From: an uncultured Methanosarcinales archaeon
GTDB taxonomy: Archaea; Nanobdellota; Nanobdellia; Woesearchaeales; JAHJBD01
DNA: 64,000 bases
Direction of reading: 5' to 3'
Assembly: GCA_964534665.1 (NCBI GenBank)
Contig: CAZHRT010000001.1
Coordinates: forward strand, 605 to 64,604
The notes beneath the pieces were generated by a model. The model was not told where the DNA came from, did no database searches, and worked only from the letters and a program-made list of their open reading frames with translations. Positions 1-43,516 of this stretch are shown piece after piece; within the stretch, counting starts at the first letter, position 1, and each line of letters begins with the position of its first letter. The position numbers and the translations under genes are program-made.

Positions 1-765
1 AAAACATCAATTATGATAGAATTCTCACCATTAAACACAAAGAATATTACAAAACAATTGGAAAAAATTTGTAAGTCTGAAAACATAAAATATAATGAAG
101 ATGTTCTAAAGAGGCTTGCAAGACGTTCAGCAGGAGATTTAAGAGCTGCAATCAATGATATTCAAACATTATCAATGACAACAGGTTCTTTAGAAAAAGA
201 AGCACTTGAATCTCTTGGAGAAAGAGAAAGAAGAGATACAATCATAAACGGCTTATTAAAAATATTTAAGACAACAGACCCAAAAATTGCAATAAAAGCA
301 TTTGAATACTGTAATGAAGATTTAAATGAACAAATGTTATGGATTGATAAAAATCTACCATTAGAATACACAAAACCAGCAGATTTAGCAAGAGCTTATG
401 ATAAACTTTCAAAAGCAGATGTTTTTAACCGAAGAATTAGAAGATGGCAACATTGGCGTTTCTTAATTTATATTAATGCACTAGTCACAGCTGGAATTGC
501 AGTATCTAAAGATAAAAAATATGATAAATATGTACAATACAAGCCAACAGGCAGAATCTTAAAATTATGGTGGGCAAAACAAAAATCAATGAAAAAGAAA
601 GCAGTTGCAGAGAAAATTGCAGAACACACACATTGTTCAATAAAAGAAGCTATAAAAAACATTGATTATTTTCAAGCAATATTCAAAAATAACAAAGAAA
701 TGTCAGAAGGAATAGCAAACCAACTAGGTTTAGACAAAGAACAAGTTGCTTGGTTAAAGAAATAA
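1..765 (+). CDS. rfcL: Replication factor C large subunit, C-terminal part (5' end outside window)
   Basis: Frame is open from base 1. Contains SAGDLRAAINDIQTL, the RFC clamp-loader lid motif, followed by an archaeal RFC-large-type C-terminal helical region. Confidence 0.8.
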   Translation, partial: KTSIMIEFSPLNTKNITKQLEKICKSENIKYNEDVLKRLARRSAGDLRAAINDIQTLSMTTGSLEKEALESLGERERRDTIINGLLKIFKTTDPKIAIKAFEYCNEDLNEQMLWIDKNLPLEYTKPADLARAYDKLSKADVFNRRIRRWQHWRFLIYINALVTAGIAVSKDKKYDKYVQYKPTGRILKLWWAKQKSMKKKAVAEKIAEHTHCSIKEAIKNIDYFQAIFKNNKEMSEGIANQLGLDKEQVAWLKK

Positions 766-827
766 TACTAAAGTTTTGTACGACATTTTCAATAAATTAT
801 TTAAACTCTCATTCTAAACCATCAAAT

Positions 828-2306
828 ATGACACTAACTATTGAAGACATGGCAACTTTCTGTAAAAAGAAAGGTTTTGTATTCTCAAACAGTGAGATTT
901 ATGGAGGAATTGCTGGTTTTTTTGATTATGGTCCGTTAGGTGTAGAACTAAAAAACAGTATCAAAGCTTCTTGGTGGAAAACCTTTGTTCAAGATAGAGA
1001 CGATGTAGTAGGAATTGATGGAACAACTATCACTCATCCAAAAATTTGGAAAGCTTCAGGACATGCAGATTGTTTTGGAGATATAATGCTTGAATGTACT
1101 AAATGTAAAGAACGTTTCAGAGGGGATCACTTAATTGAAGATTCACTTAAAATTCAAGCAGACGGTATAAGCAAAGAAGACATTGATAAATTAGTTACAG
1201 AAAACAATATCAAATGTACTAAATGTAAATCAGACTTAGGCAAAGCACATGAATTTAATTTAATGTTTACAACTCAAGTTGGTCCAATTGTATCAGATGA
1301 ATCTAAAACTTATCTTAGACCAGAAACTGCACAATTAATTTTTGCAGACTTTAAATCAGTACTAGATACTTCAAGACAAAAATTACCTTTTGGTATAGCA
1401 CAACAAGGAAGGGCTTACAGAAACGAGATTTCTCCAAGAGATTTTCTATTCAGATCAAGAGAATTTGAACAAATGGAAATTGAATTCTTTATTCATCCAA
1501 AAGAAACCAAATGTTCCTTATTAACAAAAAAAGATCAAGATTTTGAATTTCAACTTTTAACTGAAAATAACCAAAAAAAAGAACAAGAACACACAAAAAT
1601 CAAATTAAAAGACATGATAAAAAACAAAGTTGCAGGAGAATGGCACGTTTATTGGATAAAAGAGTTGTATCAATGGTTTGTTGATATTGGCATTAAGAAA
1701 GATAACTTAAGACTAAGAGAACATCTTAAAGATGAACTTGCGCATTATTCAAGTGCTTGCTTTGATATTGAATACAACTTTCCTTTTGGATGGAAAGAAA
1801 TTCATGGAAATGCAAACAGAGGTACATTTGACCTTGAACAACACGAAAAAGTATCAAAAAAATCAATGGCTGTATTTAATGAAGAAACAAAAGATAAAGT
1901 TATTCCTAGGGTTATAGAACCTTCTCAAGGAACAGACAGAGCTTTCCTAGCAATTATGTTTGATGCATATGAAGATGATAAAAAACGTGGAAATGTTGTA
2001 TTAAAATTAAATAGAAAGTTAGCACCTACAAAAGTAGCTGTATTTCCACTAGTTAATAAGCTAGAAAAAGAAGCAAGAGATGTATATGATACACTTAGAA
2101 AAGAATTTACAACCACTTTTGACAGATCAGGTTCAGTAGGAAGGCGTTATGCTAGAGCTGACGAATCAGGCATCCCATACTGTGTTACATTTGATTTTGA
2201 TAGTAAAGATGACAAATCAGTTACAATTCGTGATCGTGATTCAACTAAACAAGTGAGAGTTAAGATTGAAGATTTGAAAGAAAAATTGATTAATTTGGTT
2301 AGTTAA
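828..2306 (+). CDS. glyS: Glycyl-tRNA synthetase, archaeal/eukaryotic alpha2 type
   Basis: FVFSNSEIYGGIAGFFDYGPLG N-terminus, RFRGDHLIED insertion flanked by two CTKCK knuckles, RPETAQ, class II core and anticodon-binding tail. ATG at 828 fits the family N-terminus better than the tracker start at 750. Confidence 0.92.
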   Translation: MTLTIEDMATFCKKKGFVFSNSEIYGGIAGFFDYGPLGVELKNSIKASWWKTFVQDRDDVVGIDGTTITHPKIWKASGHADCFGDIMLECTKCKERFRGDHLIEDSLKIQADGISKEDIDKLVTENNIKCTKCKSDLGKAHEFNLMFTTQVGPIVSDESKTYLRPETAQLIFADFKSVLDTSRQKLPFGIAQQGRAYRNEISPRDFLFRSREFEQMEIEFFIHPKETKCSLLTKKDQDFEFQLLTENNQKKEQEHTKIKLKDMIKNKVAGEWHVYWIKELYQWFVDIGIKKDNLRLREHLKDELAHYSSACFDIEYNFPFGWKEIHGNANRGTFDLEQHEKVSKKSMAVFNEETKDKVIPRVIEPSQGTDRAFLAIMFDAYEDDKKRGNVVLKLNRKLAPTKVAVFPLVNKLEKEARDVYDTLRKEFTTTFDRSGSVGRRYARADESGIPYCVTFDFDSKDDKSVTIRDRDSTKQVRVKIEDLKEKLINLVS

Positions 2307-4233
2307 CCTGTACGTCTGTTCTATCTGCCTTTTGATATTTTTCATGACAATCTAAAAACCATAATACATTATCCCTGTCTGAAAAATGTTGCCTTATATG
2401 ATCTACCACTACTTGCACACGATCTAATGATGTACCTACCCTCTCTGGAAACAAATTCCCAAAAAACCTTGCTTGTCCATCTTCTTGATCTTCACACCTT
2501 TCACCAGTATTTATTTCATAATATGTAGGAGTATACTTTGTACCAACATCATGTGTAACCTCTGATCTGAAATAAGTTAGTTTCATTTCTGTGTCTGCCG
2601 CCCCAATATGTTCAAGAGTATGTCCACTTGCTTCTTCAACTTGCGCTTCATATAAAGCATCACCGTATGGTTTTAGATTTAAATCCACACCAGAACCTTC
2701 AAAAGATTTAATCCATTTCAATAAAGGTACAGATGTATAAACAGCACCCCTTTTACTCGCATCAGTACATAATCCCTGCATGTCATCTTCCTTGATATTA
2801 ATGGCCATAGTTCTAACAATCTCAATACTTCTATCATTACGGGCAAACTCCAGATAAGCATCTATGCTAGTTACACCATGTTCCAAACACATTCCAGGAG
2901 TAGGTAAATTCAAATTTCCAAACCTCCGCCCATATTTCATAGGAACTGCAACACCAATTCCTTGATACTCATCAGTTCTAGCTTTGGTTGCTGCAATATC
3001 TAGAACTTGCATTACAGGATGATACAACTCAGGTCCCAATTCTCTAAAGTTAGCTTGAGGTTTGAAAAAACCTTCAGGACCAGTCAACATTGGATAATAA
3101 CCTTGTGCTAGAAAAGCTTGCGCAACAACTAAACTTAGATTAGTATTTTCTGTATCCATACCAATGGTGGGTGTCATATCATAAAAATCATGAAGATCAG
3201 GATTAAAGAAAACAAAAGCCAATGGAGATTCAGGTCTGATCTTATCCATAATTCTTGGAGCTCTTACATCCAAAGCAGCAATGATTTGGTCAGTCATAGG
3301 AGCATGATCTACCATTTCAGCAGCTAACATATTGATATTAACATGTTTAGGCCCATCAACATCAACCATGACTGCAGTTTCAGGATGATATATATGCGGC
3401 AGATTTTTCTTGGCTTCTACAGCAGCTTCTTGAGCTCTAGCTACTGTATCACCTCTATGCGCAAGCATTCGCGTTGCCATTTGCCTTGGCGTTACAGCTG
3501 GAGTACATTCCATAAGTTCATCTGGTTTCATACCATGCATTTCTTTACCATCCAACATTGCTTGCATAATCAACAACATTTCTGAACGATGGTCTAATTC
3601 AGGCGCTATATAATTAGCTTCATACATTGCTTGTGCAATTCCAGCCAAAGAACCCAATTTTCTCAATTGAGCTATTTCATGTCCTTTCAAATTTCCTTTC
3701 AAAACATCAAAAGGTGCAGTATCCCAGTTAGCATTATGCACCATCATGCTTCCAGTAGAAAAATTGCCCATTGATAAACCATCTTCTCTAAGGAAATACT
3801 CAATACTAGTTCTAGTATCTGCATAACTTATCGCATCATTCCATTCAAAACCATCATAAACATCAATCCCTAAGACTTCTCTTGCTCCCTCAACCCCTTT
3901 CGGAAGCCCAACATGTATCTCAGTCAATCTTGTAACCTTTTCTGCTAAAGGAGCAACAACATTAGCTTGAAATCTCTGATACGCTTCAACATCATCATCA
4001 CGTAAAAAGAAAGCAAATATTTCATGATCCAAACCATCATCCTCAAGAACACCAACATACCCTAAAATTGGCTCGCCAGTATCAGGATTTAATCTAAAAC
4101 CGCTTGAACTAATTATATGGCAACCACTACTCTGTGTTGGCTCAACAGAATATCCATCAAAATTAAGCATAGCCATAAGGGTTTTTGTATCCTTGAGAGT
4201 AGAATCTGCACCAATAAGCTCAGTAAGTGGCAT
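2299..4233 (-). CDS. Hypothetical protein, 644 aa, compositional outlier (Lys-poor; rich in Asp, Gly, His, Met)
   Basis: A 644-codon uninterrupted ORF in AT-rich DNA cannot be chance. No family recognised, and no TM segment or signal peptide. Its stop overlaps the glyS stop region by 8 nt. Confidence 0.75.
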   Translation of the reverse strand: MPLTELIGADSTLKDTKTLMAMLNFDGYSVEPTQSSGCHIISSSGFRLNPDTGEPILGYVGVLEDDGLDHEIFAFFLRDDDVEAYQRFQANVVAPLAEKVTRLTEIHVGLPKGVEGAREVLGIDVYDGFEWNDAISYADTRTSIEYFLREDGLSMGNFSTGSMMVHNANWDTAPFDVLKGNLKGHEIAQLRKLGSLAGIAQAMYEANYIAPELDHRSEMLLIMQAMLDGKEMHGMKPDELMECTPAVTPRQMATRMLAHRGDTVARAQEAAVEAKKNLPHIYHPETAVMVDVDGPKHVNINMLAAEMVDHAPMTDQIIAALDVRAPRIMDKIRPESPLAFVFFNPDLHDFYDMTPTIGMDTENTNLSLVVAQAFLAQGYYPMLTGPEGFFKPQANFRELGPELYHPVMQVLDIAATKARTDEYQGIGVAVPMKYGRRFGNLNLPTPGMCLEHGVTSIDAYLEFARNDRSIEIVRTMAINIKEDDMQGLCTDASKRGAVYTSVPLLKWIKSFEGSGVDLNLKPYGDALYEAQVEEASGHTLEHIGAADTEMKLTYFRSEVTHDVGTKYTPTYYEINTGERCEDQEDGQARFFGNLFPERVGTSLDRVQVVVDHIRQHFSDRDNVLWFLDCHEKYQKADRTDVQVN

Positions 4234-4318
4234 AATATAACTGAATTAAAAGAAATTTATAAATGTTATTGTGATAAATAACAATATTTATAAAATACAT
4301 TCTCCTACCCATCTTAAA

Positions 4319-4774
4319 ATGGAAATTAAAGATTTACAACCAAGACAAGGAAAAGTCGAAATAGTTTTAGAAGTAACTGAAAAAGGCGAAGTAAGAGAAT
4401 TCGAGAAATTCGGCAAAAAAGGTAAAGTTTGCAGCTGTAAAGCTAAAGATAACACCGGCGAGATTATCTTATCGTTATGGAATGAACAAGTTGATCAAGT
4501 GAAAACAGGCGACAAAGTCAAAGTTTCTAACGGTTATATAGGAGAATGGCAAGGCGAAAAACAACTCTCAACCGGTAAATTTGGAACTTTAGAAGTTGTT
4601 ACAGGAGAAACAGAAGATAAGCCAGAACCTGTTTATACAAATGTTCCACCTCAAGAAAGACCAGAAGAAAATCTAGGCCAAGAACTTGAACAAATGCAAA
4701 ACATTCCTGATCCAGAAATGCCAAAAGAACAACTTAGTGATGACGTTGTAAAAGATGAAGAATATATTGGCTAA
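4319..4774 (+). CDS. Single OB-fold ssDNA-binding protein (SSB/RPA-like) with acidic C-terminal tail
   Basis: GKVEIVLEVTEKGEVREF..GEIILSLWNEQVD..GDKVKVSNGYIGEWQGEKQLSTGKFG is a typical archaeal OB-fold SSB. The tail is acidic (DPEMPKEQLSDDVVKDEEYIG). ATG at 4319 is preferred over the GTG at 4271. Confidence 0.8.
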   Translation: MEIKDLQPRQGKVEIVLEVTEKGEVREFEKFGKKGKVCSCKAKDNTGEIILSLWNEQVDQVKTGDKVKVSNGYIGEWQGEKQLSTGKFGTLEVVTGETEDKPEPVYTNVPPQERPEENLGQELEQMQNIPDPEMPKEQLSDDVVKDEEYIG

Positions 4775-4803
4775 ACTTTTTCTTGTCAAGAACAATTGTT
4801 ATT

Positions 4804-4832
4804 AAGCATGCTCAGAAATGATATTTCTGACA
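4804..4832 (+). repeat. Copy 1 of the GCATGC-centred palindrome plus hairpin repeat
   Basis: AAGCATGCTCAGAAATGATATTTCTGACA. The hairpin is TCAGAAAT/ATTTCTGA (8 bp, 3-nt loop). The same motif and orientation occur at 14966 and 61579. Confidence 0.7.
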
Positions 4833-4843
4833 TTTTAAAAACA

Positions 4844-4851
4844 TTTATAAA
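4844..4851 (+). promoter_or_regulatory. Putative TATA box for the tRNA at 4880
   Basis: TTTATAAA lies about 30 nt upstream of the tRNA 5' end, the spacing expected for archaeal promoters. Confidence 0.45.
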
Positions 4852-4879
4852 CAATTTATTGATTCTATTCACTTATATT

Positions 4880-5025
4880 GGGACCTTAGCTCAGACCGGG
4901 AGAGCACACGTATGAAAATACGGTTCAGTACGCTGAAGTGAATTTTAGCAACTCGGTCACGTAGGGGAAGGATGTAACGAAAGGTGCATCCTCCTAAATC
5001 GCGGATTCAAATTCCGCAGGTCCCA
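4880..5025 (+). tRNA. tRNA gene with about 72 nt of extra internal sequence (intron or introns); isotype unresolved
   Basis: Acceptor GGGACCT/AGGTCCC, D arm GCTC-AGACCGGGA-GAGC, T arm GCGGA-TTCAAAT-TCCGC. 90 nt lie between the D stem and the variable region, where 18 are expected. A GAA anticodon is possible if CACGT(4907)/ACGTA(4959) is the anticodon stem, but I could not fold a clean BHB motif. Confidence 0.75.
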
Positions 5026-5712
5026 TTTTTTTATTTTTATCAAGTGCCTTTTATTTCTAAAATAAATATATTTAAACCATAATCTAAGATTTTCTCGTCC
5101 ATTTAATCTTAAACGATATACAATTGAAGGTGATTTGAACCTCACATCGTGCCTAGTTTCTTTATAATAATTTTTTGTTAAAAATCCTTCTTGTTTCAAG
5201 AAATTAAACACTTCACTAACTAATACCTCACTCTTTGAAGTAAAACTAATTATTGGATAATCTTTCCTATAATGAATTGAACAATCAGTATCAGCTAAGC
5301 CTTTTATGAATGAGAACATATAATTTCTACTAGAATTAATCCAATTAGGAATACCAATTTGCTCTTTTCTTCCTTTCTTAAATCCTACATATACTAAATA
5401 ATTAACAAGCCCCTTTGATATTAATCTTAGGCATAGAGAGTTCTGATCTTTCTTTTTATGTGTTGTAGCAACCAAATTAAACAATTTTTTAACTAAACTT
5501 GTAACATAACTTTCTAAATAATTTTTATCTAATCTTGAGTCCCCATAAATTTCGATTAAATATTTATATTGATCAGAATAAAAATTTAAATAGCCATCTC
5601 CAGTAAGTATCCCTAAAAACTCTGCTAATTCCTTAGAAGATTGTGTTGGTAAAATTAACCCTCTTTTAATATCATTTTTGCTTAATTTGATATTTAATAA
5701 ATCAAATTTCAT
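4957..5712 (-). CDS. LAGLIDADG homing endonuclease, two-motif single-chain type
   Basis: Two LAGLIDADG-type motifs are present, LAEFLGILTGDGYL and FIKGLADTDCSI. ATG at 5712 (the tracker starts at a TTG at 5715). The last ~23 codons are read antisense through the tRNA 3' half (4957-5025). Confidence 0.85.
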   Translation of the reverse strand: MKFDLLNIKLSKNDIKRGLILPTQSSKELAEFLGILTGDGYLNFYSDQYKYLIEIYGDSRLDKNYLESYVTSLVKKLFNLVATTHKKKDQNSLCLRLISKGLVNYLVYVGFKKGRKEQIGIPNWINSSRNYMFSFIKGLADTDCSIHYRKDYPIISFTSKSEVLVSEVFNFLKQEGFLTKNYYKETRHDVRFKSPSIVYRLRLNGRENLRLWFKYIYFRNKRHLIKIKKWDLRNLNPRFRRMHLSLHPSPT

Positions 5713-5781
5713 CAATTAAGTTAACAGGTCCCCATTTAAATACCCTACGCCTACCTGTCCTGTGTCCTATGGTATAACAAG

Positions 5782-7929
5782 TTAAATACCACTCATTAAA
5801 CCAGTATCCATAATTGTAGAAGCTATTGTATTAAATAATACAATAATCACAATCGCAATAAAAGAATAAAGCACTGTACTTTTAATCATATTCTTTGCCA
5901 ACGCATTCTGCTCTCCTAATTTATCAGCACCGTTCTCAATACCATTTGCCATAACAGTTAAAATATATACAATTTGAACAACATAAAGCCCAACTATAAT
6001 CTGGAAAAAGAAAGTAGGTATGCCATCACCAAAAAGCAGAGGTATATTACTGCCCCCACTTTCCATCTGTTTCATTTGAACAGTTAATTTTCCCAAGATA
6101 TTTGTTACCATTGAAGTAATTCCAACTACTATTCCTGCAATTGCTGGCGTCAAAAACTTAATCTGAGAATTCATCGATGAAATAATCTCTGACATTAAAT
6201 CTTTAAGCCTTTCATTTACTTTATGAATTTCTTTAACATACCTTGAAACATTCATTAAAGATTCAGCAGCAATTTTAGGACCTTTTTGAATAGATTCTGT
6301 AAAGATCTTCATACTACTTTCAATAATTTTTGAAGGAAATCTTACTATCGCCCCATACTTCTTATCAAATATGGCCTCTCTAACACCCATACCCAATCGA
6401 TGAATATTATTAGTTACAACACCAAAAAACTTACCAGAAACAGTACCTTCCATTGATTGTGCAACATTTTCAACAGCCATTTCAGCTGGTACACCGTCCC
6501 CTAATCGATTACCTAATTGAAATAAAGCAGAAACAAACTCCGTCTCAAGCTTCTTAGATTTGTTCTTAACATCCATTATCCTTTTACTTTTAGTTTTATA
6601 ATAAATTCCAACTGCCAAACCAAAAGCTATTGTAATAAAAATACTTAATATAGAAGCTACAAGACCAAAAGGCCCAATCATATTATTAGAGTTTGTCATA
6701 CTTTCCCTATAACCTAAAAACGAAAATTTGCCATCCATAAACTGGACATCCCATCCAGGATTAATAGCATTGATTATTAATGGGGATAAACCAATTAAAA
6801 TAAGTATACCACCAACAAGTAAAGCTAAATACATAGGATTAACAGAATACTTTTTACCAAGAAAATTAATATCCCATTTAGTAAATTTCTTAAGTTCAGG
6901 ATTCTGTTCAGTTATATCTTCATCACCATAGCCACTAGGCCTTTTTGCAAGAATAGTTTTACCAAAATAATAAACCATAATAGGCAAAGCAACATTATAC
7001 ATTGAAGCTATATGATACCATTCAACACCTTCTAAGAAACTAACCACAAGTGGCAATACTACTAAACCAAGGATTGGTAAAATAACCCCCAACATATGTA
7101 ACATTGTAATTGGAGATTTAAGATTTTGAGCATAATGTAACATTTTTTCATATGTTCCTGATAAAATTACATCTAATGACTTATCTAAAGTTGCTAACCT
7201 TTTTTCTTCATCCCCTTCAAGCAAAGAAGATTCGATTAAATGAAAAGCTTCAATAAACTCAGAGTTATATTCCTTCCATGTTTCAAGATAATTATCTAAA
7301 CTTTCTTTTACAGATTCATACTCTTCAGTTTCAACATCCCACAAAACCTTTCTCAAATCTAAACTTAAAGGTGGTGCAAGATGCTCAGAAGCAAATTGAA
7401 CAGCACCCTCAAGGTTTGGTGTATGTCTCATATAAGTTACAACATAAAAAACACATAAAACCATTTGATTTGATGCTTTCATTCTCCAACTATTAGCAAT
7501 AAAAGCAGGCATCCTAGATAAAGGAGTTATTACAGAAGCCCCAATAGCTAAAAAGAAAAATACAAAGAAAAAAGAATTAAACAAAACATAAGAAAATAAA
7601 CTTCCAAAAAGCATAATAACTAAGGGAACTAATATTGCAAAAGACGCACTGCCTGTTGGCGTAATATTAATATGCGCAATCTTAATATGTTCTTCTATCT
7701 GTTGAGCTTTCTTCTTATCTGGTTTTATTTTAAGTAATTTTTCACTAAACCCACAAACTTTCTCATAAGTTGACAATTGTGGTGGAAGAATTTCTTTCTT
7801 AAACTGCTGATATTCAATTGATTTTACAGACTTAACTTCCTGCTTAGAACTTTCTAAAGGCCCACCTAACTGTTTATCAATCTTCTCACTAAATTCTCTC
7901 TTTAAATCACTAAAATCATCATTCCCCAT
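5782..7929 (-). CDS. Polytopic membrane platform protein, FlaJ/TadC/PilC-like (T2SS-F type domain), 715 aa
   Basis: Many TM segments, plus the cytoplasmic helical domain ETEFVSALFQLGNRLGDGVPAEMAVENVAQ..GVREAIFD typical of GspF/FlaJ repeats. It starts 1 nt after the stop of the upstream ATPase gene. Confidence 0.7.
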   Translation of the reverse strand: MGNDDFSDLKREFSEKIDKQLGGPLESSKQEVKSVKSIEYQQFKKEILPPQLSTYEKVCGFSEKLLKIKPDKKKAQQIEEHIKIAHINITPTGSASFAILVPLVIMLFGSLFSYVLFNSFFFVFFFLAIGASVITPLSRMPAFIANSWRMKASNQMVLCVFYVVTYMRHTPNLEGAVQFASEHLAPPLSLDLRKVLWDVETEEYESVKESLDNYLETWKEYNSEFIEAFHLIESSLLEGDEEKRLATLDKSLDVILSGTYEKMLHYAQNLKSPITMLHMLGVILPILGLVVLPLVVSFLEGVEWYHIASMYNVALPIMVYYFGKTILAKRPSGYGDEDITEQNPELKKFTKWDINFLGKKYSVNPMYLALLVGGILILIGLSPLIINAINPGWDVQFMDGKFSFLGYRESMTNSNNMIGPFGLVASILSIFITIAFGLAVGIYYKTKSKRIMDVKNKSKKLETEFVSALFQLGNRLGDGVPAEMAVENVAQSMEGTVSGKFFGVVTNNIHRLGMGVREAIFDKKYGAIVRFPSKIIESSMKIFTESIQKGPKIAAESLMNVSRYVKEIHKVNERLKDLMSEIISSMNSQIKFLTPAIAGIVVGITSMVTNILGKLTVQMKQMESGGSNIPLLFGDGIPTFFFQIIVGLYVVQIVYILTVMANGIENGADKLGEQNALAKNMIKSTVLYSFIAIVIIVLFNTIASTIMDTGLMSGI

Positions 7930-7930
7930 T

Positions 7931-10207
7931 TTACTTAATGTTCATTTTTTTATAAGTACGTTTAAGCCACTCATTCCAGTCAAAAAATATCCTTTTAGAA
8001 TCTAAAGACCCAACTTCTGTTTTAACTATATCAGAAATCCTATGAAACTCATCATTTGCTTGTATTGTAAATTCAGCTTCCAACAAATCCATGTTCTTCG
8101 CTTTTACTGCAAAATCAACCAATGTTTGTTTCATTTTTGCTCTTAACTGTATATTGTCCCATACAGCATCCCAGTCGCCAGCCCAATCTTTTACTTTTCC
8201 AGCTATAGATTTTAGTATTTCACTGTCACCATTTATCAAATCATCAGAAGGTTCAAGCTGATCTGTTGCTGTTTCATATTTCATCAAATCAACAAAACCA
8301 CCTTCTAAAAGAGGGTCATTTTCCCAATGTTTTCTTACTTCAGTTATAGCAGTTACTCGTCGCCATTTATGCAAACCATCTGCACTTTTTATTGGATTTG
8401 CAACAATAACAATATCAGTAGCTTTAAATGAAGTTTTTGGAACACCTAAATCATTTACAACCCTATCATAAACACCATACGGGCTATCACCATGAATTGT
8501 TCCCGCAACAACATTTGCTAAAGCTCCAACCCTCATAGCTTCATAAAGTGCTTTTGCTTCTGTACTCCTAACCTCTCCAACTATCAAACTGCTATCACCT
8601 AGTCTTAATGTTGTCCTTATACCTTCATCTGCTGGAACTTCAGCTGTACCTTTTGACATAGCTGACGCAACTTTCATTGGTTGAATATTATAACCCATCT
8701 TTCTTAATGCAGTAACAGGCAATTCTAAAGTATCTTCAATAGTTAGAATTCTATACCTTCGCATTATCTCAGTAAGAATAGAACCAAGCAAAGAAGATTT
8801 ACCAGCCGACCTTGTTCCAGCAACAAGCATTGTTCTTGAACCATCAACCAAAAAACTAATTATGCCTGCAGCCAAAGAGTTAATCATACGATAATGAATA
8901 AATAAAGGAAGTGTCCAAGGTTTATCCCTATGGCGCCTAAAAGAAAATGCCATTCCATTTGGGTTCAAAGGTTCTGAAATAACTGCAACCCTGTTTCTTG
9001 CACCTGGAAGTTCAAGTTCTGTATCTAAAATAGGATTAGCTTCATCTAATGGCCTTCCACTAATCATTCTAAGTTTTGAAGCCCATGATTCTGCCTCAGG
9101 TGGTGTTGGAATAACATTTGTTATACAATCTCCATGATCCCCATGAACAATAAAAATAGGAACCTCTCCCATTGGACTATTGATTGAAACATCTTGAACT
9201 TTCTCATCTTGAAGTAAAACTTCAATTAAACCAAAACCAATAGTATATCTAACAAGAATTTCTGTTAACTCTTTAATTTCTTTAAGAGACATCTTAACAT
9301 GATGTCTATCTGTTAATTCTTCAATCAAATCCTGGCCAATGTTCGAAAAAACTTGCCTCATTCTTTCAGGCTCAACAAACTCACTCCTCTTAGGCTTATG
9401 CTCAGCCATAATTTTTCTAGCCATGTCAAGAATATTATACGCATCTTCTGACAACTTAAACTCAGGTGGCACAATATGATAAAGAAGCTGTATTGTATTA
9501 GGTAAACTAAATACTGTTACTTCAGTAGCTCCAACTTTATAAGCATCAATCTCTTCTCCATCAATAGGATAATTTGACATCAATTTAGTATACATAAAAT
9601 CTGGCTTAATAGATGCTGAGAAGAGTTTACGATAAAGTTCTCTTTCACCCATTTTATATCCAGCTAATGTAGGAGCAGCTCTAACAATAATCTGCATTTT
9701 CTCCATCATAGAAATAATCTGACTCAGAATCTTGATAACATTCTCATAACACTCTTTAGCTGTTCTATCAACAGCTTTTTCTTCCATAATATGAACATCT
9801 CTTGATAACCTTCTAAGTTCAACATATCCTCCTATGGGGTCACCTTTGAAAACATCAGTAATGAAATGTTTTACTTGACTAAATAAACCAGCACTATACC
9901 TAGCACATGCAGGATCATAAACAAAAGCATTGTAACTCAAAAGATCTTTTCTTTTTGATATCTCAGCAGAAATTCTTGCAACTTCTATTAGTAGTGATGT
10001 TTGAGCATATTCATATTCATAATTTCTTTTTTGATAGAAAATTAATTTAGTTGCACCAGTTGTTTCAACTAATGCATCAACTGCTTTAGCCATTAATACA
10101 GAATCATTTTCCAATGAAGGGATCTTATGATATGATTCACAATTAATCTTAACAATTACTTCTTCTCCTTCCCTGATTACATCGTAATCAAAAAGCTTGT
10201 CTGCCAA
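7931..10207 (-). CDS. Type II/IV secretion-family ATPase (FlaI/PilB/VirB11-like), 758 aa with a long N-terminal extension
   Basis: Walker A is GTRSAGKSSLLGSIL. ILTIEDTLEL and GEVRSTEAKALYEAMRVG are Asp-box and His-box type motifs of the GspE/FlaI family. A GAGGTGA sequence precedes the ATG. Confidence 0.85.
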   Translation of the reverse strand: MADKLFDYDVIREGEEVIVKINCESYHKIPSLENDSVLMAKAVDALVETTGATKLIFYQKRNYEYEYAQTSLLIEVARISAEISKRKDLLSYNAFVYDPACARYSAGLFSQVKHFITDVFKGDPIGGYVELRRLSRDVHIMEEKAVDRTAKECYENVIKILSQIISMMEKMQIIVRAAPTLAGYKMGERELYRKLFSASIKPDFMYTKLMSNYPIDGEEIDAYKVGATEVTVFSLPNTIQLLYHIVPPEFKLSEDAYNILDMARKIMAEHKPKRSEFVEPERMRQVFSNIGQDLIEELTDRHHVKMSLKEIKELTEILVRYTIGFGLIEVLLQDEKVQDVSINSPMGEVPIFIVHGDHGDCITNVIPTPPEAESWASKLRMISGRPLDEANPILDTELELPGARNRVAVISEPLNPNGMAFSFRRHRDKPWTLPLFIHYRMINSLAAGIISFLVDGSRTMLVAGTRSAGKSSLLGSILTEIMRRYRILTIEDTLELPVTALRKMGYNIQPMKVASAMSKGTAEVPADEGIRTTLRLGDSSLIVGEVRSTEAKALYEAMRVGALANVVAGTIHGDSPYGVYDRVVNDLGVPKTSFKATDIVIVANPIKSADGLHKWRRVTAITEVRKHWENDPLLEGGFVDLMKYETATDQLEPSDDLINGDSEILKSIAGKVKDWAGDWDAVWDNIQLRAKMKQTLVDFAVKAKNMDLLEAEFTIQANDEFHRISDIVKTEVGSLDSKRIFFDWNEWLKRTYKKMNIK

Positions 10208-10226
10208 TCATTTCACCTCTTTTTTT

Positions 10227-10370
10227 TCACTCTTTTTTATCTTTTAATAACTCAATAGCAATCTCAATCAAATGCGATTTATTCCTATACTTTTTCGTAT
10301 CTTTTAGTTCACTATCTATCCACTTAACCAAATCAGCATCAATAGTAGCACTAATGATCTTTTTTGCCAT
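10227..10370 (-). CDS. Ribbon-helix-helix (CopG/Arc-like) DNA-binding protein, 47 aa, missing from the ORF track
   Basis: My hand translation is MAKKIISATIDADLVKWIDSELKDTKKYRNKSHLIEIAIELLKDKKE. The pattern is beta strand (ISATID), helix, turn, helix, as in RHH proteins. It ends 19 nt upstream of the ATPase gene on the same strand. Confidence 0.65.
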   Translation of the reverse strand: MAKKIISATIDADLVKWIDSELKDTKKYRNKSHLIEIAIELLKDKKE

Positions 10371-10480
10371 TTACCCTTACTTTAACTAATATATTTTATA
10401 AAACTTTCTATTAGAAAATATATTTTATTTATATTATATATTAATTTAATTAATAAATATCTTATTTAAAACTAGAAATA

Positions 10481-11329
10481 TTATTCTCCAAGAAATTGTA
10501 CTTGTAAATAAGAAGTAGCACCTACTTCTCCACTAGATATTTGCAAACCATACCCTTCTTCAAGCCTTTGCATCAAAGTTGGATCAAACCCATTTACATC
10601 ATGAAAAATATCCTGAGCAGATAATCCCGCGACTCCTGCACTTGGAGCGCTCAACCTAAATCCTCCATCAGACATCTCAGTCGTCAAAACAGGCCTCCCC
10701 TCTAATTCAGAACCAATCAAAGCGCGCACCGCACTAACATAGTATGCAGTCATCAAATAACCAACCTCATAAGGACTAGCCCCTATTCTCTGGTGAATAT
10801 CTCCATCTGGAAGATTACAATCAACTCGATCCCCTTGAACAGTTCGTCCAAATGCTTCTGGTGTCTCCATTGATAAATGTTTTCTTGATAAGAAATTCGC
10901 ATCTAACAAAAGATTATATAGTGATAGATCAAATTTTGCTGTAGGATCATTAACAACAGATTGAAATGTGCCAACACGCTGATAATCTTCAGCAACATGG
11001 CCTGTATAATTAACCTGTAATCGTTTAGCTTGGGTGACAGTAACAGGAAGCTCATCAGGAAACTCAGCCCTTCCTGTAATAATATCATCTATTTGCATAG
11101 CCAATCCCTGAACATCAAAATCAGTCCCCAGCTCTTTGCCTATATCTAATATTCTTTGCCTATATCCAACAAAACTTGCAACTACATCTTGTAAAGAATC
11201 TATTTCAGAAGCAGTATGTGCAAAACCCATATGACAAAAAGTGCCTCCAACTAATGACGCACTATGTGCCCACCTTATCCTATTTTGATGTGTATCTTGT
11301 AAGGTTTCAGGTGTAAGTAAGTCTGACAT
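10481..11329 (-). CDS. Hypothetical acidic protein, 282 aa, extreme compositional outlier
   Basis: Long ORF with only 4 Lys in 282 residues (my count), set among Lys-rich proteins. No family recognised and no TM segment. Confidence 0.7.
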   Translation of the reverse strand: MSDLLTPETLQDTHQNRIRWAHSASLVGGTFCHMGFAHTASEIDSLQDVVASFVGYRQRILDIGKELGTDFDVQGLAMQIDDIITGRAEFPDELPVTVTQAKRLQVNYTGHVAEDYQRVGTFQSVVNDPTAKFDLSLYNLLLDANFLSRKHLSMETPEAFGRTVQGDRVDCNLPDGDIHQRIGASPYEVGYLMTAYYVSAVRALIGSELEGRPVLTTEMSDGGFRLSAPSAGVAGLSAQDIFHDVNGFDPTLMQRLEEGYGLQISSGEVGATSYLQVQFLGE

Positions 11330-11489
11330 TCCATTAAATAATACATTTTAGTTTAAATAAATTTATATTATATATAGTCGTTTATACATTTTCTTCCAAA
11401 AGACGATAGAGAGCCATATAACAACATCATTTAAATAGTAAAAATAATTAATAGTTACAAAGGATATTAATTTAGAGAAGATCATAAAA

Positions 11490-12026
11490 ATGAAAAGGAA
11501 AATAATACTCAATTTAGCAATTAGCTTGGATGGTTATATTGCAGATAAAGATGGTGGTTTTGCTTGGATTAAAGGAAATGGAGATAAAAGACATGATACA
11601 AAAAATCAGTTTAGCTTTCCTAAATTTCTTAAAACAGTAGATACAATAATTATTGGAAAAAAAGCTTATGATGATAGTTATGACATATCAAAAAAAATGT
11701 TTAAATCTAAAAAAATTTATGTGGTCACACATAAGAAATTAGAAAATAAAGAGGATAACATAGGAATCATTAGTGGAAATATTGTCTCAAAAATTACTAA
11801 ACTTAAAAAAGAAAAAGGCAAAGATATTTGGTTATTTGGTGGAGGCATAGTAATTGATCCATTTGTTAAGGCGGATGTTATTGACGAATATATTATTGGT
11901 GTTGTCCCAACAATTTTAGGTAGCGGAAGACCTTTATTTTTGAAAAACAATCCGCTAATTAAATTACATTTTAAAGAATGTACTTCCCAAGAAGGAATTG
12001 TTATTCTAAGATATTCAAAAAAATAA
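11490..12026 (+). CDS. Dihydrofolate reductase-like / RibD C-terminal domain family protein
   Basis: KIILNLAISLDGYIADKDGGFAWI, IIIGKKAYD, WLFGGGIVIDPF and IIGVVPTILGSGRPLF match the RibD_C/DHFR-like fold signature. Confidence 0.75.
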   Translation: MKRKIILNLAISLDGYIADKDGGFAWIKGNGDKRHDTKNQFSFPKFLKTVDTIIIGKKAYDDSYDISKKMFKSKKIYVVTHKKLENKEDNIGIISGNIVSKITKLKKEKGKDIWLFGGGIVIDPFVKADVIDEYIIGVVPTILGSGRPLFLKNNPLIKLHFKECTSQEGIVILRYSKK

Positions 12027-12155
12027 TTGGAATTATACTTCTGCTATAGAAACAAACAATCAAGTGATTGTTTACATCAACCACTATAAAATAGTCACAC
12101 ATATTTATATTAAAACAAACTAAAATATGATTTAATCTAGATAATAGAATAGAAA

Positions 12156-12611
12156 ATGGGAAAACCACTATTTGTAATCGGAAAGCCTAAACCAGGCGAA
12201 CCAGCAAAACCAGGCGCAATGACTTTAGGTAAACCAAAAAAAGGTGAACCAGTAGCTGCACCAGACGTTTCAGAAGATGTTGCAGAATTAAATAGAAGAA
12301 TGCGCCTTATTGAAGAAAGAAACGCAAGCTTAGACATTCGTTTAGAAGTTATTGAAGAAAATGCAGTAAAAAGGCACCAGAAACTAGCCAAAGAATTTAA
12401 AACATTTTTACTAGATATTTTAGAATTAAGAAGAGATATGAACGAATTAAAAAACAAATTACTTTCATTAATAAAGAATATGAGCCTTTTATCTAGAAAA
12501 GAAGAAGTTGATGTTTTAAAAAAATATCTTGATTTATGGAAACCTATGAATTTCGTTACAAGAAGCGAAATCCAAGAAATAGTTCAAGAAGAAATCAAAA
12601 AGTTTAAATAG
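12156..12611 (+). CDS. Hypothetical coiled-coil protein with Pro/Gly/Lys-rich N-terminus
   Basis: The N-terminus has GKPKPGEPAKPG..GKPKKGEP repeats, followed by heptad-like helical sequence. No family recognised. Confidence 0.6.
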   Translation: MGKPLFVIGKPKPGEPAKPGAMTLGKPKKGEPVAAPDVSEDVAELNRRMRLIEERNASLDIRLEVIEENAVKRHQKLAKEFKTFLLDILELRRDMNELKNKLLSLIKNMSLLSRKEEVDVLKKYLDLWKPMNFVTRSEIQEIVQEEIKKFK

Positions 12612-12645
12612 CGCTAATAGAAAAATAAAAAAGAGGTAATAGATA

Positions 12646-13176
12646 ATGGCAGGTCTTTCAGATACAATTAATTCTTATAGGCAACAGGGCTATAAAGATG
12701 ATCAAATAGTACAATATCTACAAAGCCAGGGCCATGCTCAAAATGAAATTTTTGCAGCTATGGGAAAATCAGCTCCGCCTGCAGGGGGCGCACCGCCGCC
12801 ACCACCAGGGGCACCAACAGCCAGTTCACAATCTTCAAGAGAACAAATTGAAGAAGTTGCTGAAGCAGTTGTAGAAGAAAAGTGGAAATCATTGTTAGAA
12901 AAATTAGACGCATTAACTGAATGGAAAAATGATGCACAAACAAAACTAACAACATTAGAACAAAACCTAAAAAATATTCAAACTAATTTTGATTCATTAC
13001 ACAAAGGAATTCTAGGTAAAATCTCTGAATATGACAAAAATCTAACTGACGTTGGCACATCAATAAAAGCCATGGACAAAGTCTTTAAAGAAGTTCTACC
13101 AAGTTTTACGGAAAACGTAAACAAATTAGACAGGATAGCAAATAAATCTTCCGCACCTCAAAAAAGAAGAATATAA
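12646..13176 (+). CDS. Hypothetical protein: small N-terminal domain, polyproline linker, coiled coil
   Basis: The linker is APPAGGAPPPPPGAPT, followed by a long helical and coiled-coil region. No family recognised. Confidence 0.6.
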   Translation: MAGLSDTINSYRQQGYKDDQIVQYLQSQGHAQNEIFAAMGKSAPPAGGAPPPPPGAPTASSQSSREQIEEVAEAVVEEKWKSLLEKLDALTEWKNDAQTKLTTLEQNLKNIQTNFDSLHKGILGKISEYDKNLTDVGTSIKAMDKVFKEVLPSFTENVNKLDRIANKSSAPQKRRI

Positions 13177-13698: not shown

Positions 13699-13700
13699 TC

Positions 13701-14294: not shown

Positions 14295-14298
14295 TTTT

Positions 14299-14856: not shown

Positions 14857-14965
14857 GTTCAAAATAATAGGACGATTCATATTTAAAGGTTTCGATTTGT
14901 CAAGAACCACAAGTCATAGACCAATAATACAAAGTGAAGCTTCATCTTTACTATATTAACAGTGG

Positions 14966-14998
14966 TTCTTGAGCATGCTCAGGAATATATTCCTTACA
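14966..14998 (+). repeat. Copy 2 of the GCATGC-centred palindrome plus hairpin repeat
   Basis: TTCTTGAGCATGCTCAGGAATATATTCCTTACA. The palindromic core is TGAGCATGCTCA and the downstream hairpin is AGGAAT/ATTCCT. Intergenic. Confidence 0.7.
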
Positions 14999-28062: not shown

Positions 28063-28479
28063 TTATCCAAATACCCAACTAGAAGTTGGTTTCCTTCTTC
28101 CACGTACGAGAGTAGTTTCTAAACTATTATTAACTCGTAATGCATATCGAGATGCCAATAACTCAAGTGTAAAGAATGCCTCATGATTTGTAACTGAATT
28201 ATTTTCAACACTTTTTGTTAATCTTCTTACATCATAGACATTATTTGATCTGTAATTATTGCAACCTAAGAAATACAAAGCATGCGCTTTTGCACTTGAC
28301 AAATGATCAGTAATATCCAAGCCATCCTTTTGAGCCATTTCCACAAGTTCGTCAGGAAATTTATGTTTTAATATACTCATCCTAGCACTATAATGCAAAC
28401 CATCTCTATCTGCTTGATATTCTCTCGTTAATCTTTGTACTTCAGAAATATAATCTACAATACCAACATCCCCTCTCAA
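28063..28479 (-). CDS. Hypothetical protein, 138 aa or longer, compositional outlier with no ATG start
   Basis: The first candidate start is a TTG at 28479. The frame stays open 32 more codons upstream (to 28575) without ATG or GTG, and there it encodes ..AVSDYCHDEGKIVN.., an HD-like dipeptide context. Possibly a gene fragment. Confidence 0.5.
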   Translation of the reverse strand: MRGDVGIVDYISEVQRLTREYQADRDGLHYSARMSILKHKFPDELVEMAQKDGLDITDHLSSAKAHALYFLGCNNYRSNNVYDVRRLTKSVENNSVTNHEAFFTLELLASRYALRVNNSLETTLVRGRRKPTSSWVFG

Positions 28480-34306: not shown

Positions 34307-34930
34307 ATGAATATAATATTTTTAGGCCCGCCAGGAGCAGGCAAAGGAACAATAGCACAACAAATTGTAAATGATTTAAATATTCCACAAATCTCAACAG
34401 GAGATTTATTAAGAGCAGCTGTTAAAGAAGGAACAGAATTAGGTATGAAAGCTAAAGAATACATGGATTCTGGTCAATTAGTACCAGATGATTTAGTAAT
34501 TAACATGCTTAAAGAAAGAATTAAAAAAAATGATTGTCAAAACGGATTTATTCTTGATGGTTTTCCAAGAACAATTCCTCAAGCAGAAGCTTTAGATCAA
34601 GCCGGAATTAAGATTGATAAAACAATTAACTTTCAAGTTTCAGATGAATTAGTTATCCATAGAATTACTGGTAGACGTACTTCAAAAGAAACAGGTAAAA
34701 TCTACAATATCTATCCAGATTGTGCCCCTAATCCACCAAAAGGACATCCAGAAGAAGATTTGCTTCAAAGAGATGATGATAATGAAGAAGTTGTCAACAA
34801 AAGGTTAATACAATATCGTGAACAAACAGAACCTTTGATTGGATTCTATAAAGAAAAGGGTTTGTTAGTAGATATTAATGCGACAGAACCTCTTGATAAG
34901 ATTGTTACTGCAGTAAAAGACAATATTTAA
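34307..34930 (+). CDS. adk: Adenylate kinase
   Basis: The P-loop is [13 protein letters not shown], with ISTGDLLR and [10 protein letters not shown]. The LID lacks the Cys4 zinc site. Confidence 0.93.
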
Positions 34931-35946
34931 GGAAATTTTCTTTTTTCTTTTTCTAATATTTTTTTATACCTTTCAAAAGATTCATCTGCAAGCATTGAAA
35001 GACCGTCTTCTGATAGTCCAAGGTCTTCTGGAGTTAGTAATGATGCATGTTTTAGATTAGATGTTGAACCATATCTTAACGATTTAAATGACCTAAATGT
35101 AACAACCAGATCTCTTGTTGTATTTGCCCCTTCATGCCTAGCAAAAAGGTTTTCACCAGAAAAAGATTCAGGACCCATATTTTCTGTTAAACTCCTTAAA
35201 CTTTGTAACATTAAAACTGAAAATCCCTTCTCTTCATATCCTCCAAAAAGCATATATCCACCAAACCTTTCTTGATGTAAAGTATTGCTCCACATCATAA
35301 CTAAAGGTTCTGCCAAAACTTCACCACGACTATTTACTATTGGTGTTCTTGTATCATGCATATATTCCCTATAATGTTGTGGATAATGATCCCTTAATTC
35401 AGTAACATAATCATCTAAGTGCGCTAAACAAACTGAAGCAGCAGTAAATACATCTGTTCTTCCACCATAATCTTTAACAAATCTTGGAGAAAGAGTTCTT
35501 GATAATCTTAATGCCCGCCTTTCTTGATCATCTCTCCCTTTATGCTTTCCAAGTGAAACATGTGTAGCAATGTTCCATAATATCTTAGTTGCTATCATCC
35601 TTCCAATAGAATACCCATCTCTTCTCATTAAAGTTGCACCATCTTTATCTCTCAATACATGGTCAATTATTCCATCAAATTCTTCATTTTTCCATGGTAA
35701 CTTGAGATCAGTTGTTGGTATATCATCTGTTTTTGTATCCCACGAAACCATGTCTCTTGGTAAATATAAAAAACCCTTATCATATGTTAAACCAGGTGTT
35801 TCTTTTCCACTCCCACCAAGCAAAGAAAGATCTTGAAGCCCAAGTCTAGACCACATAGTGTCATACATTGCAGTAAATACATCTCTTACTATTCTACTCT
35901 TAGTTATATCCTCTTGCAGCCCTGCATAATCTATTACGTTTGCCAT
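34927..35946 (-). CDS. Hypothetical protein, 339 aa, compositional outlier
   Basis: Long ORF that is relatively Lys-poor except for its last ~15 residues, and rich in Arg, Asp, Gly, His and Met. Its stop overlaps the adk stop by 4 nt. No family recognised. Confidence 0.7.
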
Positions 35947-42733: not shown

Positions 42734-43516
42734 ATGATATCTTACAAAGAATTACATACTGCAGCAACCGATATTATGGAGCCTTGGGCTTTTTCAGCAA
42801 GAGCTAATTTACTTAGTGTAACAGAAATTACTTTTGATCAACAAAGACTCAAATTAACTAATTTTTATTTACCTTTCCATCAACATGTAAACTTACCAGA
42901 ACTTATTGAAATGGGAGAAAATATCACTGGTACCAGTTTAGAACTTGCTCAAATTATGCAAGATGAATTAAAAAGAAGATACCATTCAGATGAGTCGCCG
43001 TTAGGTATAAACGCAGTTTATGCATACGAACCAAAATTCTTTAACAATAAAAGAGGAGATAGTCAACCAGTATTATTAGTTGACACATCAGAAGGTCAAG
43101 CATTAATAGACCCTGCTTTTAAAGTGGTTCGTCCATTTCAAGGCTCAAGCCAAGGTTCAGGTTATGTGACAGATAATGTTGATGTTAACTTTACCCCTTT
43201 AACCTACCCAAGCCTCATTTTAGACTTAGGTCAAGATATTCCATATTGTATAGATGAGGAACATTATTACTCAAGCGAACCAACAGACGAAAGTGTTATG
43301 ACTAGAATAGGTTTAGGAACTGAAAATCTAGGGCGTTGCGTTTTCTTTGCATATCCTATGACTGCAAAAACCCCTGCCACAGAAGAGATCACAAAGGACA
43401 TGTTAACTTTTAGATTTACAAAAGGAGATCCAAAACCCATTGGAACAATGGATGATGAAACATTGGAAGAACATTTAATAGATCTAATTAAAAAAGCTCA
43501 TAGATTTAGTAAATAA
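42734..43516 (+). CDS. Hypothetical protein, 260 aa, compositional outlier
   Basis: Long ORF between gatE and gatD on the opposite strand. It is acidic and rich in Thr, Pro and Gly. No family recognised. Confidence 0.7.
   Translation: MISYKELHTAATDIMEPWAFSARANLLSVTEITFDQQRLKLTNFYLPFHQHVNLPELIEMGENITGTSLELAQIMQDELKRRYHSDESPLGINAVYAYEPKFFNNKRGDSQPVLLVDTSEGQALIDPAFKVVRPFQGSSQGSGYVTDNVDVNFTPLTYPSLILDLGQDIPYCIDEEHYYSSEPTDESVMTRIGLGTENLGRCVFFAYPMTAKTPATEEITKDMLTFRFTKGDPKPIGTMDDETLEEHLIDLIKKAHRFSK

Follow-up and report, generated by a model that had tools for sequence, protein, structure and literature searches.

Lysine-poor orphan genes at housekeeping-gene junctions of a marine Woesearchaeales archaeon: probable old, partly ameliorated lineage-specific acquisitions

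Introduction

The classical ORFan, or taxonomically restricted gene, is short and more AT-rich than its genome. The ORFans of Escherichia coli were reportedly the subject of work by Daubin and Ochman in 2004. Integration hot spots, where pairs of core genes collect accessory cargo between them, are said to have been described by Oliveira et al. in 2017 as part of the chromosomal organisation of horizontal gene transfer, and the amelioration of horizontally acquired genes was reportedly treated by Lawrence and Ochman in 1997. Here we relate these systems to a 64,000-nucleotide (nt) window of contig CAZHRT010000001.1 (assembly GCA_964534665.1, positions 605 to 64,604), which comes from a marine Woesearchaeales (DPANN) archaeon, and in particular to o2299, an orphan gene of 644 amino acids (aa) located between the genes for GlyRS and an SSB-like protein. 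The products of o2299 and of four further open reading frames (ORFs) in the window (o10481, o28063, o34927 and o42734) stand apart in their amino acid composition, and we propose, as the probable explanation, that these mutually unrelated genes are old, independently acquired and partly ameliorated accessory genes specific to the lineage.

The outliers resemble ORFans in having no homologues beyond a narrow clade, in evolving faster than their conserved neighbours, in lacking recognised domains and in lying between conserved genes. Unlike classical ORFans they are long (up to 644 aa), and their G+C content is above that of their neighbours at codon positions 1 and 2 and native at position 3 (GC3). 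As at core-gene hot spots, the SSB/GlyRS, ATPase/o12156 and gatD/gatE junctions hold different, unrelated genes in each lineage, but each insert consists of one gene, unaccompanied by an integrase, a tRNA target, repeats or recognisable mobile machinery, and the host is a DPANN archaeon rather than a bacterium. As in ameliorating genes, the third codon position is at the host equilibrium whereas positions 1 and 2 and the amino acids lag behind, with variable residues shifting. In contrast to the cases for which that model was devised, there is no known donor, selection for a lysine-poor protein is inseparable from compositional legacy, and the model is applied here by inference only.

Results

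The coordinates given for o2299 in the original prediction, which was made from the sequence alone (2299..4233, minus strand, 644 aa, ATG start), proved exact. The remaining five frames over this interval hold 26-83 stops, of all three kinds. An ortholog of 641 aa, 74% identical to o2299, was found on contig L001 of a sister genome (protein P0002), where the gene order is that of the window (FlaJ-like gene, SSB, orphan, GlyRS). The two genes differ at 102, 86 and 218 sites of codon positions 1, 2 and 3, respectively, with a synonymous divergence (dS) of 0.70, a nonsynonymous divergence (dN) of 0.164 and a dN/dS ratio of 0.235. Because only one frame is open, third-position differences dominate and dN/dS is 0.235, o2299 is a genuine protein-coding gene under purifying selection. 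The stops in the other five frames, together with the minus-strand codon-position pattern, rule out a gene that is recoded or on the wrong strand.

That the outliers are not genes at all, being chance or antisense ORFs, assembly chimeras or non-coding RNA loci, has a close to negligible probability for the set, and for o2299 this reading is already refuted by the codon-position pattern. It could appeal to the fact that expression evidence is nil and to the almost even spread of the differences between o10481 and its relative over the three codon positions (65, 63 and 73). However, the chance of a 644-codon open frame at 38% G+C is about e^-44 (an estimate from base composition), and the frames are kept in relatives at 20-50% divergence with indels that are all multiples of three. 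Moreover, o2299 is present and identical in every contig of the species from independent ENA, JGI and Logan assemblies, in a population that is near-clonal (0-2 differences per 3-8 kb), and Rfam returned no family match, so the non-coding RNA reading was rejected.

Comparing the window with the sister genome, SSB is 96% identical, FlaJ 92.5% and GlyRS 87-92%, against 74% for o2299. For the neighbours SSB, FlaJ, GlyRS and the type-IV-pilus-like ATPase, dN ranged from 0.011 to 0.071 and dN/dS from 0.02 to 0.17, leaving out one GlyRS N-terminal dN/dS value that was affected by an alignment-register error. Amino acid change in o2299 is thus approximately 2-15 times faster than in these genes, and o2299 evolves several times faster than its neighbours overall. 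Conservation along the protein is uneven: sliding-window identity is 0.88-0.95 over residues ~321-436, a central core, versus 0.53-0.70 in the C-terminal third, identity drops to 53% over the final 70 residues, and five of the eight long invariant blocks fall in the core (including 363-396 and 398-420; the longest runs span 34 residues). By its conservation the core is the best candidate for the functional site of the protein. The product as a whole is soluble and acidic (98 D+E versus 57 K+R; 3.9% Lys), with no internal repeats and no metal-binding motif conserved across the orthologue pair.

These rates bear on the suggestion, made in the original prediction, that the outliers are strongly constrained unknown enzymes; in its full form, this reading has their composition dictated by function alone. 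It describes o34927 well enough, since this gene alone is housekeeping-like (dN/dS 0.13, with a divergence like that of TruD), and both the nearly invariant core of 115 residues in o2299 and the persistence of lysine poverty in all three orthologue pairs are what it would expect. For o2299 and o10481 it fails: both outpace every neighbour (dN 0.164 and 0.243; dN/dS 0.235 and 0.52), and the C-terminal half of o10481 is near neutral. No conserved catalytic or cofactor motif was found in the o2299 pair, and a distribution of one or two species would be unusual for a needed enzyme. As an account of all five genes, constraint on enzyme function is distinctly unlikely.

The prediction had recognised no family for any of the five, and the searches agree: none of the five had a match below E=0.1 in Pfam, NCBIfam, PHROGs or PADLOC, and no ordinary conserved enzyme family could be assigned to any ORF. 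Nothing fell below E=1 in NCBIfam or below E=0.27 in PHROGs, the anti-phage defence models of PADLOC gave zero matches, and the orthologues of three of the proteins (P0002, P0015 and P0016) likewise found nothing in Pfam. Sequence and profile searches of the PDB returned either nothing or chance-level matches at E>0.5. Scans of viral sequences in IMG/VR were negative for all five, although viruses of DPANN archaea are barely sampled and the genes may still have a viral source; tblastn against phage records (o2299 and o42734) also found nothing. A word-indexed search of 5.8 billion clusters with o2299 retrieved only itself and its sister ortholog, and that ortholog was again the sole relative when an o2299/P0002 profile was run exhaustively with HMMER against 1.84 billion representative proteins. 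A scan of GTDB genomes with the o2299 alignment found nothing, but this was a weak search in which only two N-terminal peptide patterns were used. The word-indexed search gave one relative each for o10481 (64% identical) and o34927 (50%). o2299 is accordingly a taxonomically restricted (orphan) gene, found in one marine Woesearchaeota species and its sister.

All five ORFs named in the prediction exist, and its claim that they are poor in lysine was borne out. Of 63 non-nested ORFs of at least 100 aa in the window, 55 are soluble, and in this group the five rank lowest in Lys, with fractions of 0.014-0.056, whereas the other 50 average 0.111 (sd 0.027, minimum 0.067); the corresponding z-scores of -2.0 to -3.6 are descriptive and not an independent test, as the five were chosen by composition. 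They are also the lowest five in summed Ile, Lys and Asn (0.08-0.15 versus 0.252 +/- 0.043), and their R/(K+R) ratios are 0.43-0.79 versus 0.22 +/- 0.09 (z +2.3 to +6.1). The predicted enrichment in other residues held only in part: all five have more Asp, His and Arg (z up to +1.6 for Asp and His and up to +4.2 for Arg) and modestly more Thr (+0.3 to +1.7), but Gly and Met show no consistent increase. The absence of transmembrane segments was confirmed, the highest 19-residue hydropathy being at most 1.08 in the five versus 2.7-3.0 in membrane ORFs of the window.

At the DNA level the distinction largely disappears. The outliers had been described as visibly less AT-rich; their G+C content is indeed slightly higher (0.33-0.39, in a window of 31.8%) but overlaps that of conserved enzymes such as PPDK (0.376). 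Their GC3 is 0.18-0.23 (0.226 for o2299) against 0.177 +/- 0.028 (z +0.1 to +1.8), the first and second codon positions are mostly within the native range, and the positional G+C of o2299 almost equals that of PPDK. Synonymous preferences are native (AGA, TTA, GAT, AAT and CAT), with somewhat more G-ending and fewer C-ending codons (GCG 0.12 versus 0.03; GAG 0.25 versus 0.14), and codon-fit scores (z about -1.3 to -2) are exceeded by worse scores elsewhere in the window. Because GC3, synonymous codon choice and promoters are all native, the outlier signal is a property of the proteins, mainly lysine avoidance, and not of the DNA.

The promoter of o2299 illustrates this. o2299 and SSB are arranged divergently, with TATA boxes at about 4254-4265 and 4284-4295, each ~25-30 nt from its own ATG (~27 nt on the o2299 side), and the same box position is seen at many native genes in the window. 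The SSB-side box falls within a 36-nt stretch (4265-4300) over which window and sister are 100% identical, and the box on the o2299 side is conserved too; both boxes exceed the conservation of synonymous sites, where divergence is ~0.3-0.45. The start of SSB is likely the ATG at 4319, and its 151-aa product was called in one assembly. Between the two boxes lies a small palindrome (TTATTGT..ACAATAA, 4265-4283) that is fully conserved in the sister; from its placement it may be an operator site. At the opposite edge GlyRS and o2299 are convergent, and their stops overlap by 8 nt (2299-2306) in both genomes. There is no spare flanking DNA around o2299. No convincing terminal repeats or target duplications were detected around any of the five outliers, and no integrase, recognisable mobile-element machinery or tRNA was found near them.

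These observations separate two parts of a further suggestion in the original prediction, that the outliers are recent horizontal acquisitions, which would then be compositionally still foreign. Insertion into ancestrally adjacent gene pairs is supported (see below), and the variability of the junctions between lineages, the slightly raised G+C and the few additional G-ending codons would all fit a recent arrival. "Recent", however, is contradicted by native codon usage and promoters, by fixation in a near-clonal population and by sharing with the sister at dS 0.5-0.7. With GC3 at native values, the same codon preferences, a conserved promoter of native type and no integrase, repeat or tRNA nearby, recent acquisition is extremely unlikely.

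Gene order around o2299 was compared using the ATPase, which has 277 relatives in GTDB genomes; the best 80 loci were taken, nearly all of them labelled Woesearchaeota, Nanoarchaeota, Nanoarchaeia or with a binning label for similar metagenome-assembled genomes. In 14 of the 25 Woesearchaeales loci that have both genes, SSB and GlyRS share one orientation, with less than 150 nt between them. The other 11, the window lineage included, hold inserts of at least six unrelated kinds, among them a Pat-like CoA-ligase/GNAT protein with a deacetylase, a Bro-N protein, a peroxiredoxin (four loci) and Pfam-less ORFs. Because mutually unrelated inserts occur there in 11 of 25 loci, the SSB/GlyRS junction is an insertion hot spot. 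Two further junctions behave likewise. The ATPase and a homologue of ORF 12156 are adjacent in ~29 loci, with variable genes between them in 11; the window has o10481 and a Lys-rich RibD_C gene in this gap, the latter being absent from all related loci compared. Of 14 metagenome loci around gatE, at least 6 have gatD immediately next to it; in the others the space between the two is taken up by a GNAT gene, a MazE-like gene, a weak LAGLIDADG-like ORF or an ORF that is Lys-poor and Pfam-less. For HerA/Mre11, the two related loci carrying one gene do not carry the other. Across positions 1-17,900 of the window, every ORF has homologues in 20-81 related loci, with the exception of o2299, o10481, the RibD_C gene and a LAGLIDADG ORF.

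The Bro-N protein at the SSB-GlyRS junction comes from one groundwater Woesearchaeote (L012, 9332-10291). Bro-N domains are typical of viruses and mobile elements, and its presence hints that mobile DNA reaches this hot spot.

The same comparison bears on the idea that the five genes were never inserted, being native and old genes whose homologues have become unrecognisable through fast evolution (homology-detection failure). At the rate of o2299, orthologues in genomes with a 65-70% identical ATPase could indeed drop below HMMER detection, and the SSB/GlyRS junction of one locus (L049) holds a Pfam-less ORF of 657 aa that is oriented like o2299. This ORF was tried as a positional homologue and rejected at the available sensitivity, the alignment of the o2299 pair with it by hhalign having a probability of 0.3%. 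Furthermore, SSB and GlyRS lie too close together in 14 of 25 loci to accommodate a gene, and a fast-evolving resident of a 32% G+C genome should be rich in Lys, Ile and Asn, the opposite of what was seen. We regard an entirely native origin as unlikely.

All five outliers are located at housekeeping-gene junctions, as predicted; the prediction had them often on the opposite strand, but only o2299 and o42734 oppose both neighbours. For o10481, the only relative (P0015) is 64% identical and syntenic beside the ATPase on contigs L007 and L008, the latter from the same metagenome sample as the o2299 ortholog. The pair has a dN of 0.243 and a dN/dS of 0.52. In the C-terminal half, the proportions of nonsynonymous (pN) and synonymous (pS) differences are ~0.3 and ~0.5; the reading frame is nevertheless kept, internal indels are all multiples of three and no change occurs in the first 41 residues. 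o34927 has a single relative (P0016), which is 50% identical and occupies the same TruD-x-Adk position in a distant genome of 36% G+C, where TruD is 51%, Adk 61% and PPDK 72% identical to the window. With a dN/dS of 0.13, o34927 appears to be older and normally constrained, diverging like TruD. Within its own locus, P0016 has the lowest Ile+Lys+Asn and the second-lowest Lys. o28063 had no match in the family libraries, IMG/VR or related loci, and its 90% cluster contains only two 138-aa sequences, both from long contigs. No match to o42734 was found in the family libraries, IMG/VR, phage records or related loci.

Two observations concern the edges of o10481. Its first ~125 nt (11206-11329) show 4 differences to L007, all synonymous, compared with a divergence of 20-30% in the remainder of the gene, and a 48-nt intergenic block upstream of the ATPase (10404-10451) is 100% identical to L007; regulatory or RNA-level constraint, or recombination, could account for both. 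In addition, the L007 orthologue contains an in-frame 12-nt tandem duplication (GAGCTTCCTGAT / GGGCTTCCTGTT, corresponding to window ~11040-11060) that adds four residues.

The original prediction also raised the possibility that the five ORFs are members of one dispersed system; their unusual composition would then stem from a common origin, location or partner. They do share a Lys-poor, Arg-preferring make-up, relatives of o2299 and o10481 both occur in the metagenome sample of the sister (the relatives' genomes being fragmentary), and o10481 and o42734 resemble each other just upstream of the ATG. Yet no pairwise sequence similarity was detectable among the five, and paralogy, whether among them or with Lys-poor orphans of other lineages, was rejected. 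The three outliers that can be compared (o2299, o10481 and o34927) differ in rate and phyletic depth: dN/dS is spread over 0.13-0.52, o34927 has its one relative in a distant genome, and the databases contain no further relative of o2299. The genes lie 7-18 kb apart amid unrelated housekeeping genes, PADLOC was negative, and mutually unrelated Lys-poor unique ORFs also occur in other Woesearchaeales. A single system is therefore very unlikely.

To return to lysine, its distribution within the three orthologue pairs was compared with that in native proteins. Lys makes up 0.011-0.035 of identical positions and 0.05-0.09 of differing positions in the pairs, versus ~0.07 and 0.16-0.17, respectively, in PPDK and Adk. 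Because the variable-site Lys of the orphans sits between their conserved-site Lys and the variable-site Lys of native proteins, the composition appears to be partially ameliorated: unconstrained sites would be drifting towards the Lys-rich norm of the host without having reached it, while constrained residues stay Lys-poor and would also account for the low Ile and Asn and the high Arg/Lys ratio. The combination of native GC3 with Lys-poor residues would fit genes that were taken up long ago from an unsampled source with weaker AT bias and have ameliorated since.

Lysine poverty was also tabulated across related loci, taking as Lys-poor any ORF with a Lys fraction more than 0.03 below the core mean of its locus. 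Of 42 lineage-unique ORFs of at least 200 aa flanked by core genes, 16 were Lys-poor; among core ORFs the count was 46 of 228 (odds ratio 2.4, p = 0.016). Most of the listed Lys-poor core ORFs belong to the ATPase and FlaJ families, and the majority of the 16 have the GC1 > GC2 > GC3 order expected of coding sequence. Seven of the Lys-poor lineage-unique ORFs were sampled; none had a significant Pfam domain and none was related to another by phmmer.

Such ORFs in other Woesearchaeales are 230-390 aa long, Arg-preferring and Pfam-less, lie between core genes, are each confined to a single lineage and are unrelated to the five of the window (examples in Table 1). The RibD_C insert, in turn, is very rich in Lys, Ile and Asn (I+K+N 0.354), the opposite of the orphans; it is lineage-specific yet Lys-rich, and insert status alone therefore does not predict lysine poverty.

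The features of the window are collected in Table 1. Its DNA was recovered at 100% identity from marine and seawater metagenomes of several studies. A GatB-type subunit is encoded in addition to GatE with GatD, and both tRNA-dependent amidotransferase routes are apparently present. On the sister contig L001 (4087-5564), GlyRS is split into two ORFs (230 and 231 aa) by a frameshift or assembly error, whereas the window GlyRS is intact. The sister ATPase (L007, 1199-4975) is a 1258-aa protein with Intein_splicing and LAGLIDADG_3 domains, and the N-terminal 549 residues flanking the intein are 98% identical to the window ATPase.

Table 1. Coordinates of the five outlier ORFs, their surroundings and other features of the window, with examples of Lys-poor ORFs from related loci
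Feature	Coordinates	Strand	Remarks
GlyRS	750..2306	+	Pfam tRNA-synt_2b + HGTP_anticodon; left flank of o2299 insertion site
o2299	2299..4233	-	644-aa orphan; single open frame of six
o2299 core	2926..3273	-	Most conserved part; residues ~321-436
Divergent promoter region o2299/SSB	4234..4318	.	85 nt; two TTTATAAA-type TATA boxes
OB-fold SSB-like gene	4319..4774	+	Pfam Ssb-like_OB; right flank of o2299 site
LAGLIDADG_3 ORF	4957-5715	-	252 aa, free-standing; between FlaJ-like gene and SSB
Type-IV-pilus-like ATPase	7931-10207		758 aa; inteinless copy
o10481	10481..11329	-	282 aa; upstream of ATPase; most extreme outlier, 1.4% Lys
RibD_C-domain gene	11490-12026	+	178 aa
GatB-type subunit	25436-26851	+	GatB_N + GatB_Yqey
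o28063	28063..28479	-	138 aa, Arg-rich; between HerA (Pfam DUF87/HerA) and Mre11 (Metallophos), same strand
tRNA-Thr	33749		Sole tRNA in window
o34927	34927..35946	-	339 aa; between adenylate kinase (Adk) and TruD
GatE	41232-42659	-	Pfam GatB_N
o42734	42734..43516	+	260 aa; separates gatE and gatD (Pfam Asparaginase/GatD_N), opposite strand
Signal recognition particle (SRP) RNA	48285-48557		Archaeal
Lys-poor lineage-unique ORF, locus L011	14704-15630		
Lys-poor lineage-unique ORF, locus L042	6522-7586		
Lys-poor lineage-unique ORF, locus L057	7024-8004		
Lys-poor lineage-unique ORF, locus L075	8580-9683		
Lys-poor lineage-unique ORF, locus L017	18377-19081		

Homologues of the LAGLIDADG_3 ORF (27-63% identical) occupy the FlaJ/SSB junction in ~10 other Woesearchaeales loci, and the sister contig L001 retains only a 26-aa remnant (65% identical) at this spot. 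Free-standing homing endonuclease genes sit between conserved genes in T4-like phages and can promote local DNA exchange. The setting of o2299 is similar in that the LAGLIDADG ORF lies 723 nt from it and recurs at its own site, and in that the sister ATPase carries an intein with a LAGLIDADG domain. It is dissimilar in that the orphans have no endonuclease domain and the sister keeps o2299 together with only the 26-aa remnant.

Discussion

Taken together, the data are probably best explained by acquisition of o2299 and the four unrelated outliers as separate, old events followed by partial amelioration. In this scenario o2299 would have been inserted antisense into an ancestrally contiguous GlyRS-SSB pair, having originated outside an AT-driven proteome, in an unsampled donor such as an archaeal virus or another mobile gene pool. 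The third codon position would then have ameliorated fully and the amino acids only partly. The gene would since have been domesticated, with its own conserved TATA promoter of leaderless type and native codons, becoming fixed in the species and shared with the sister, and the other four outliers would be separate instances of the same insertion process.

Several points weigh against this explanation. No donor or homologue is known, and we infer the foreign origin and the accessory role of o2299, the origin from composition and synteny only. The sister genome is represented by short contigs, and absences from it weigh little. Selection for a Lys-poor protein would match the data about as well as legacy does; in the o34927 family, lysine poverty persists after 50% divergence, and the poorer copy is the one in the more AT-rich genome. 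For o28063 and o42734 the comparisons consist of family libraries, IMG/VR and ~100 related loci, with phage records for o42734 only. As to function, no P-loop, HExxH, GxSxG, CxxC, Rossmann or nuclease motif is conserved in both o2299 orthologues. AlphaFold2 models from two-sequence alignments had a mean predicted local distance difference test score (pLDDT) of 33.2 for o2299 and 33.5 for o34927, too poor for fold comparison. Finally, three metatranscriptomes from the study containing the DNA of the organism gave only spurious matches of 20-40 nt and are uninformative on expression.

On balance we take o2299, judging by its sequence features, to encode a soluble cytoplasmic accessory protein that would be transcribed from its own promoter, with the core at residues ~321-436 as its putative working part. 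DPANN archaea rely on other cells, and much of the coding capacity of their small genomes is devoted to proteins whose function is unknown. Because o2299 is located at a hot spot, has a narrow distribution and evolves at a raised rate, a role in conflict or partner interaction is favoured over one in core metabolism, if only tentatively, and such a role is possible rather than probable.

The Lys-depleted, Arg-preferring, Pfam-less and lineage-unique proteins found at junctions across Woesearchaeales might instead form a functional class, their composition reflecting what they do and not where they came from, but this would be a long shot. They may, for one, be carried by a DPANN virus or mobile gene pool that has yet to be described. 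Certain toxins that enter eukaryotic cells are kept lysine-poor and thereby evade lysine-directed modification or degradation. By analogy, the proteins may alternatively act in or against a partner cell, with few lysines as a means of escaping such modification or degradation.

No new mechanism is revealed by these genes. The orphan families are new, but their kind, lineage-specific cargo at core-gene junctions, is known, and their importance is modest unless the lysine-poor class proves functional. For the biology of the lineage, the results mean that compositional outliers in such a genome can be real, selected and lineage-specific additions at a few recurrent housekeeping junctions, and they point to integration hot spots in archaeal genomes that have no recognisable mobile-element machinery. 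In uncultured symbionts, candidate genes for accessory functions or partner interaction can be singled out simply by their lysine avoidance.

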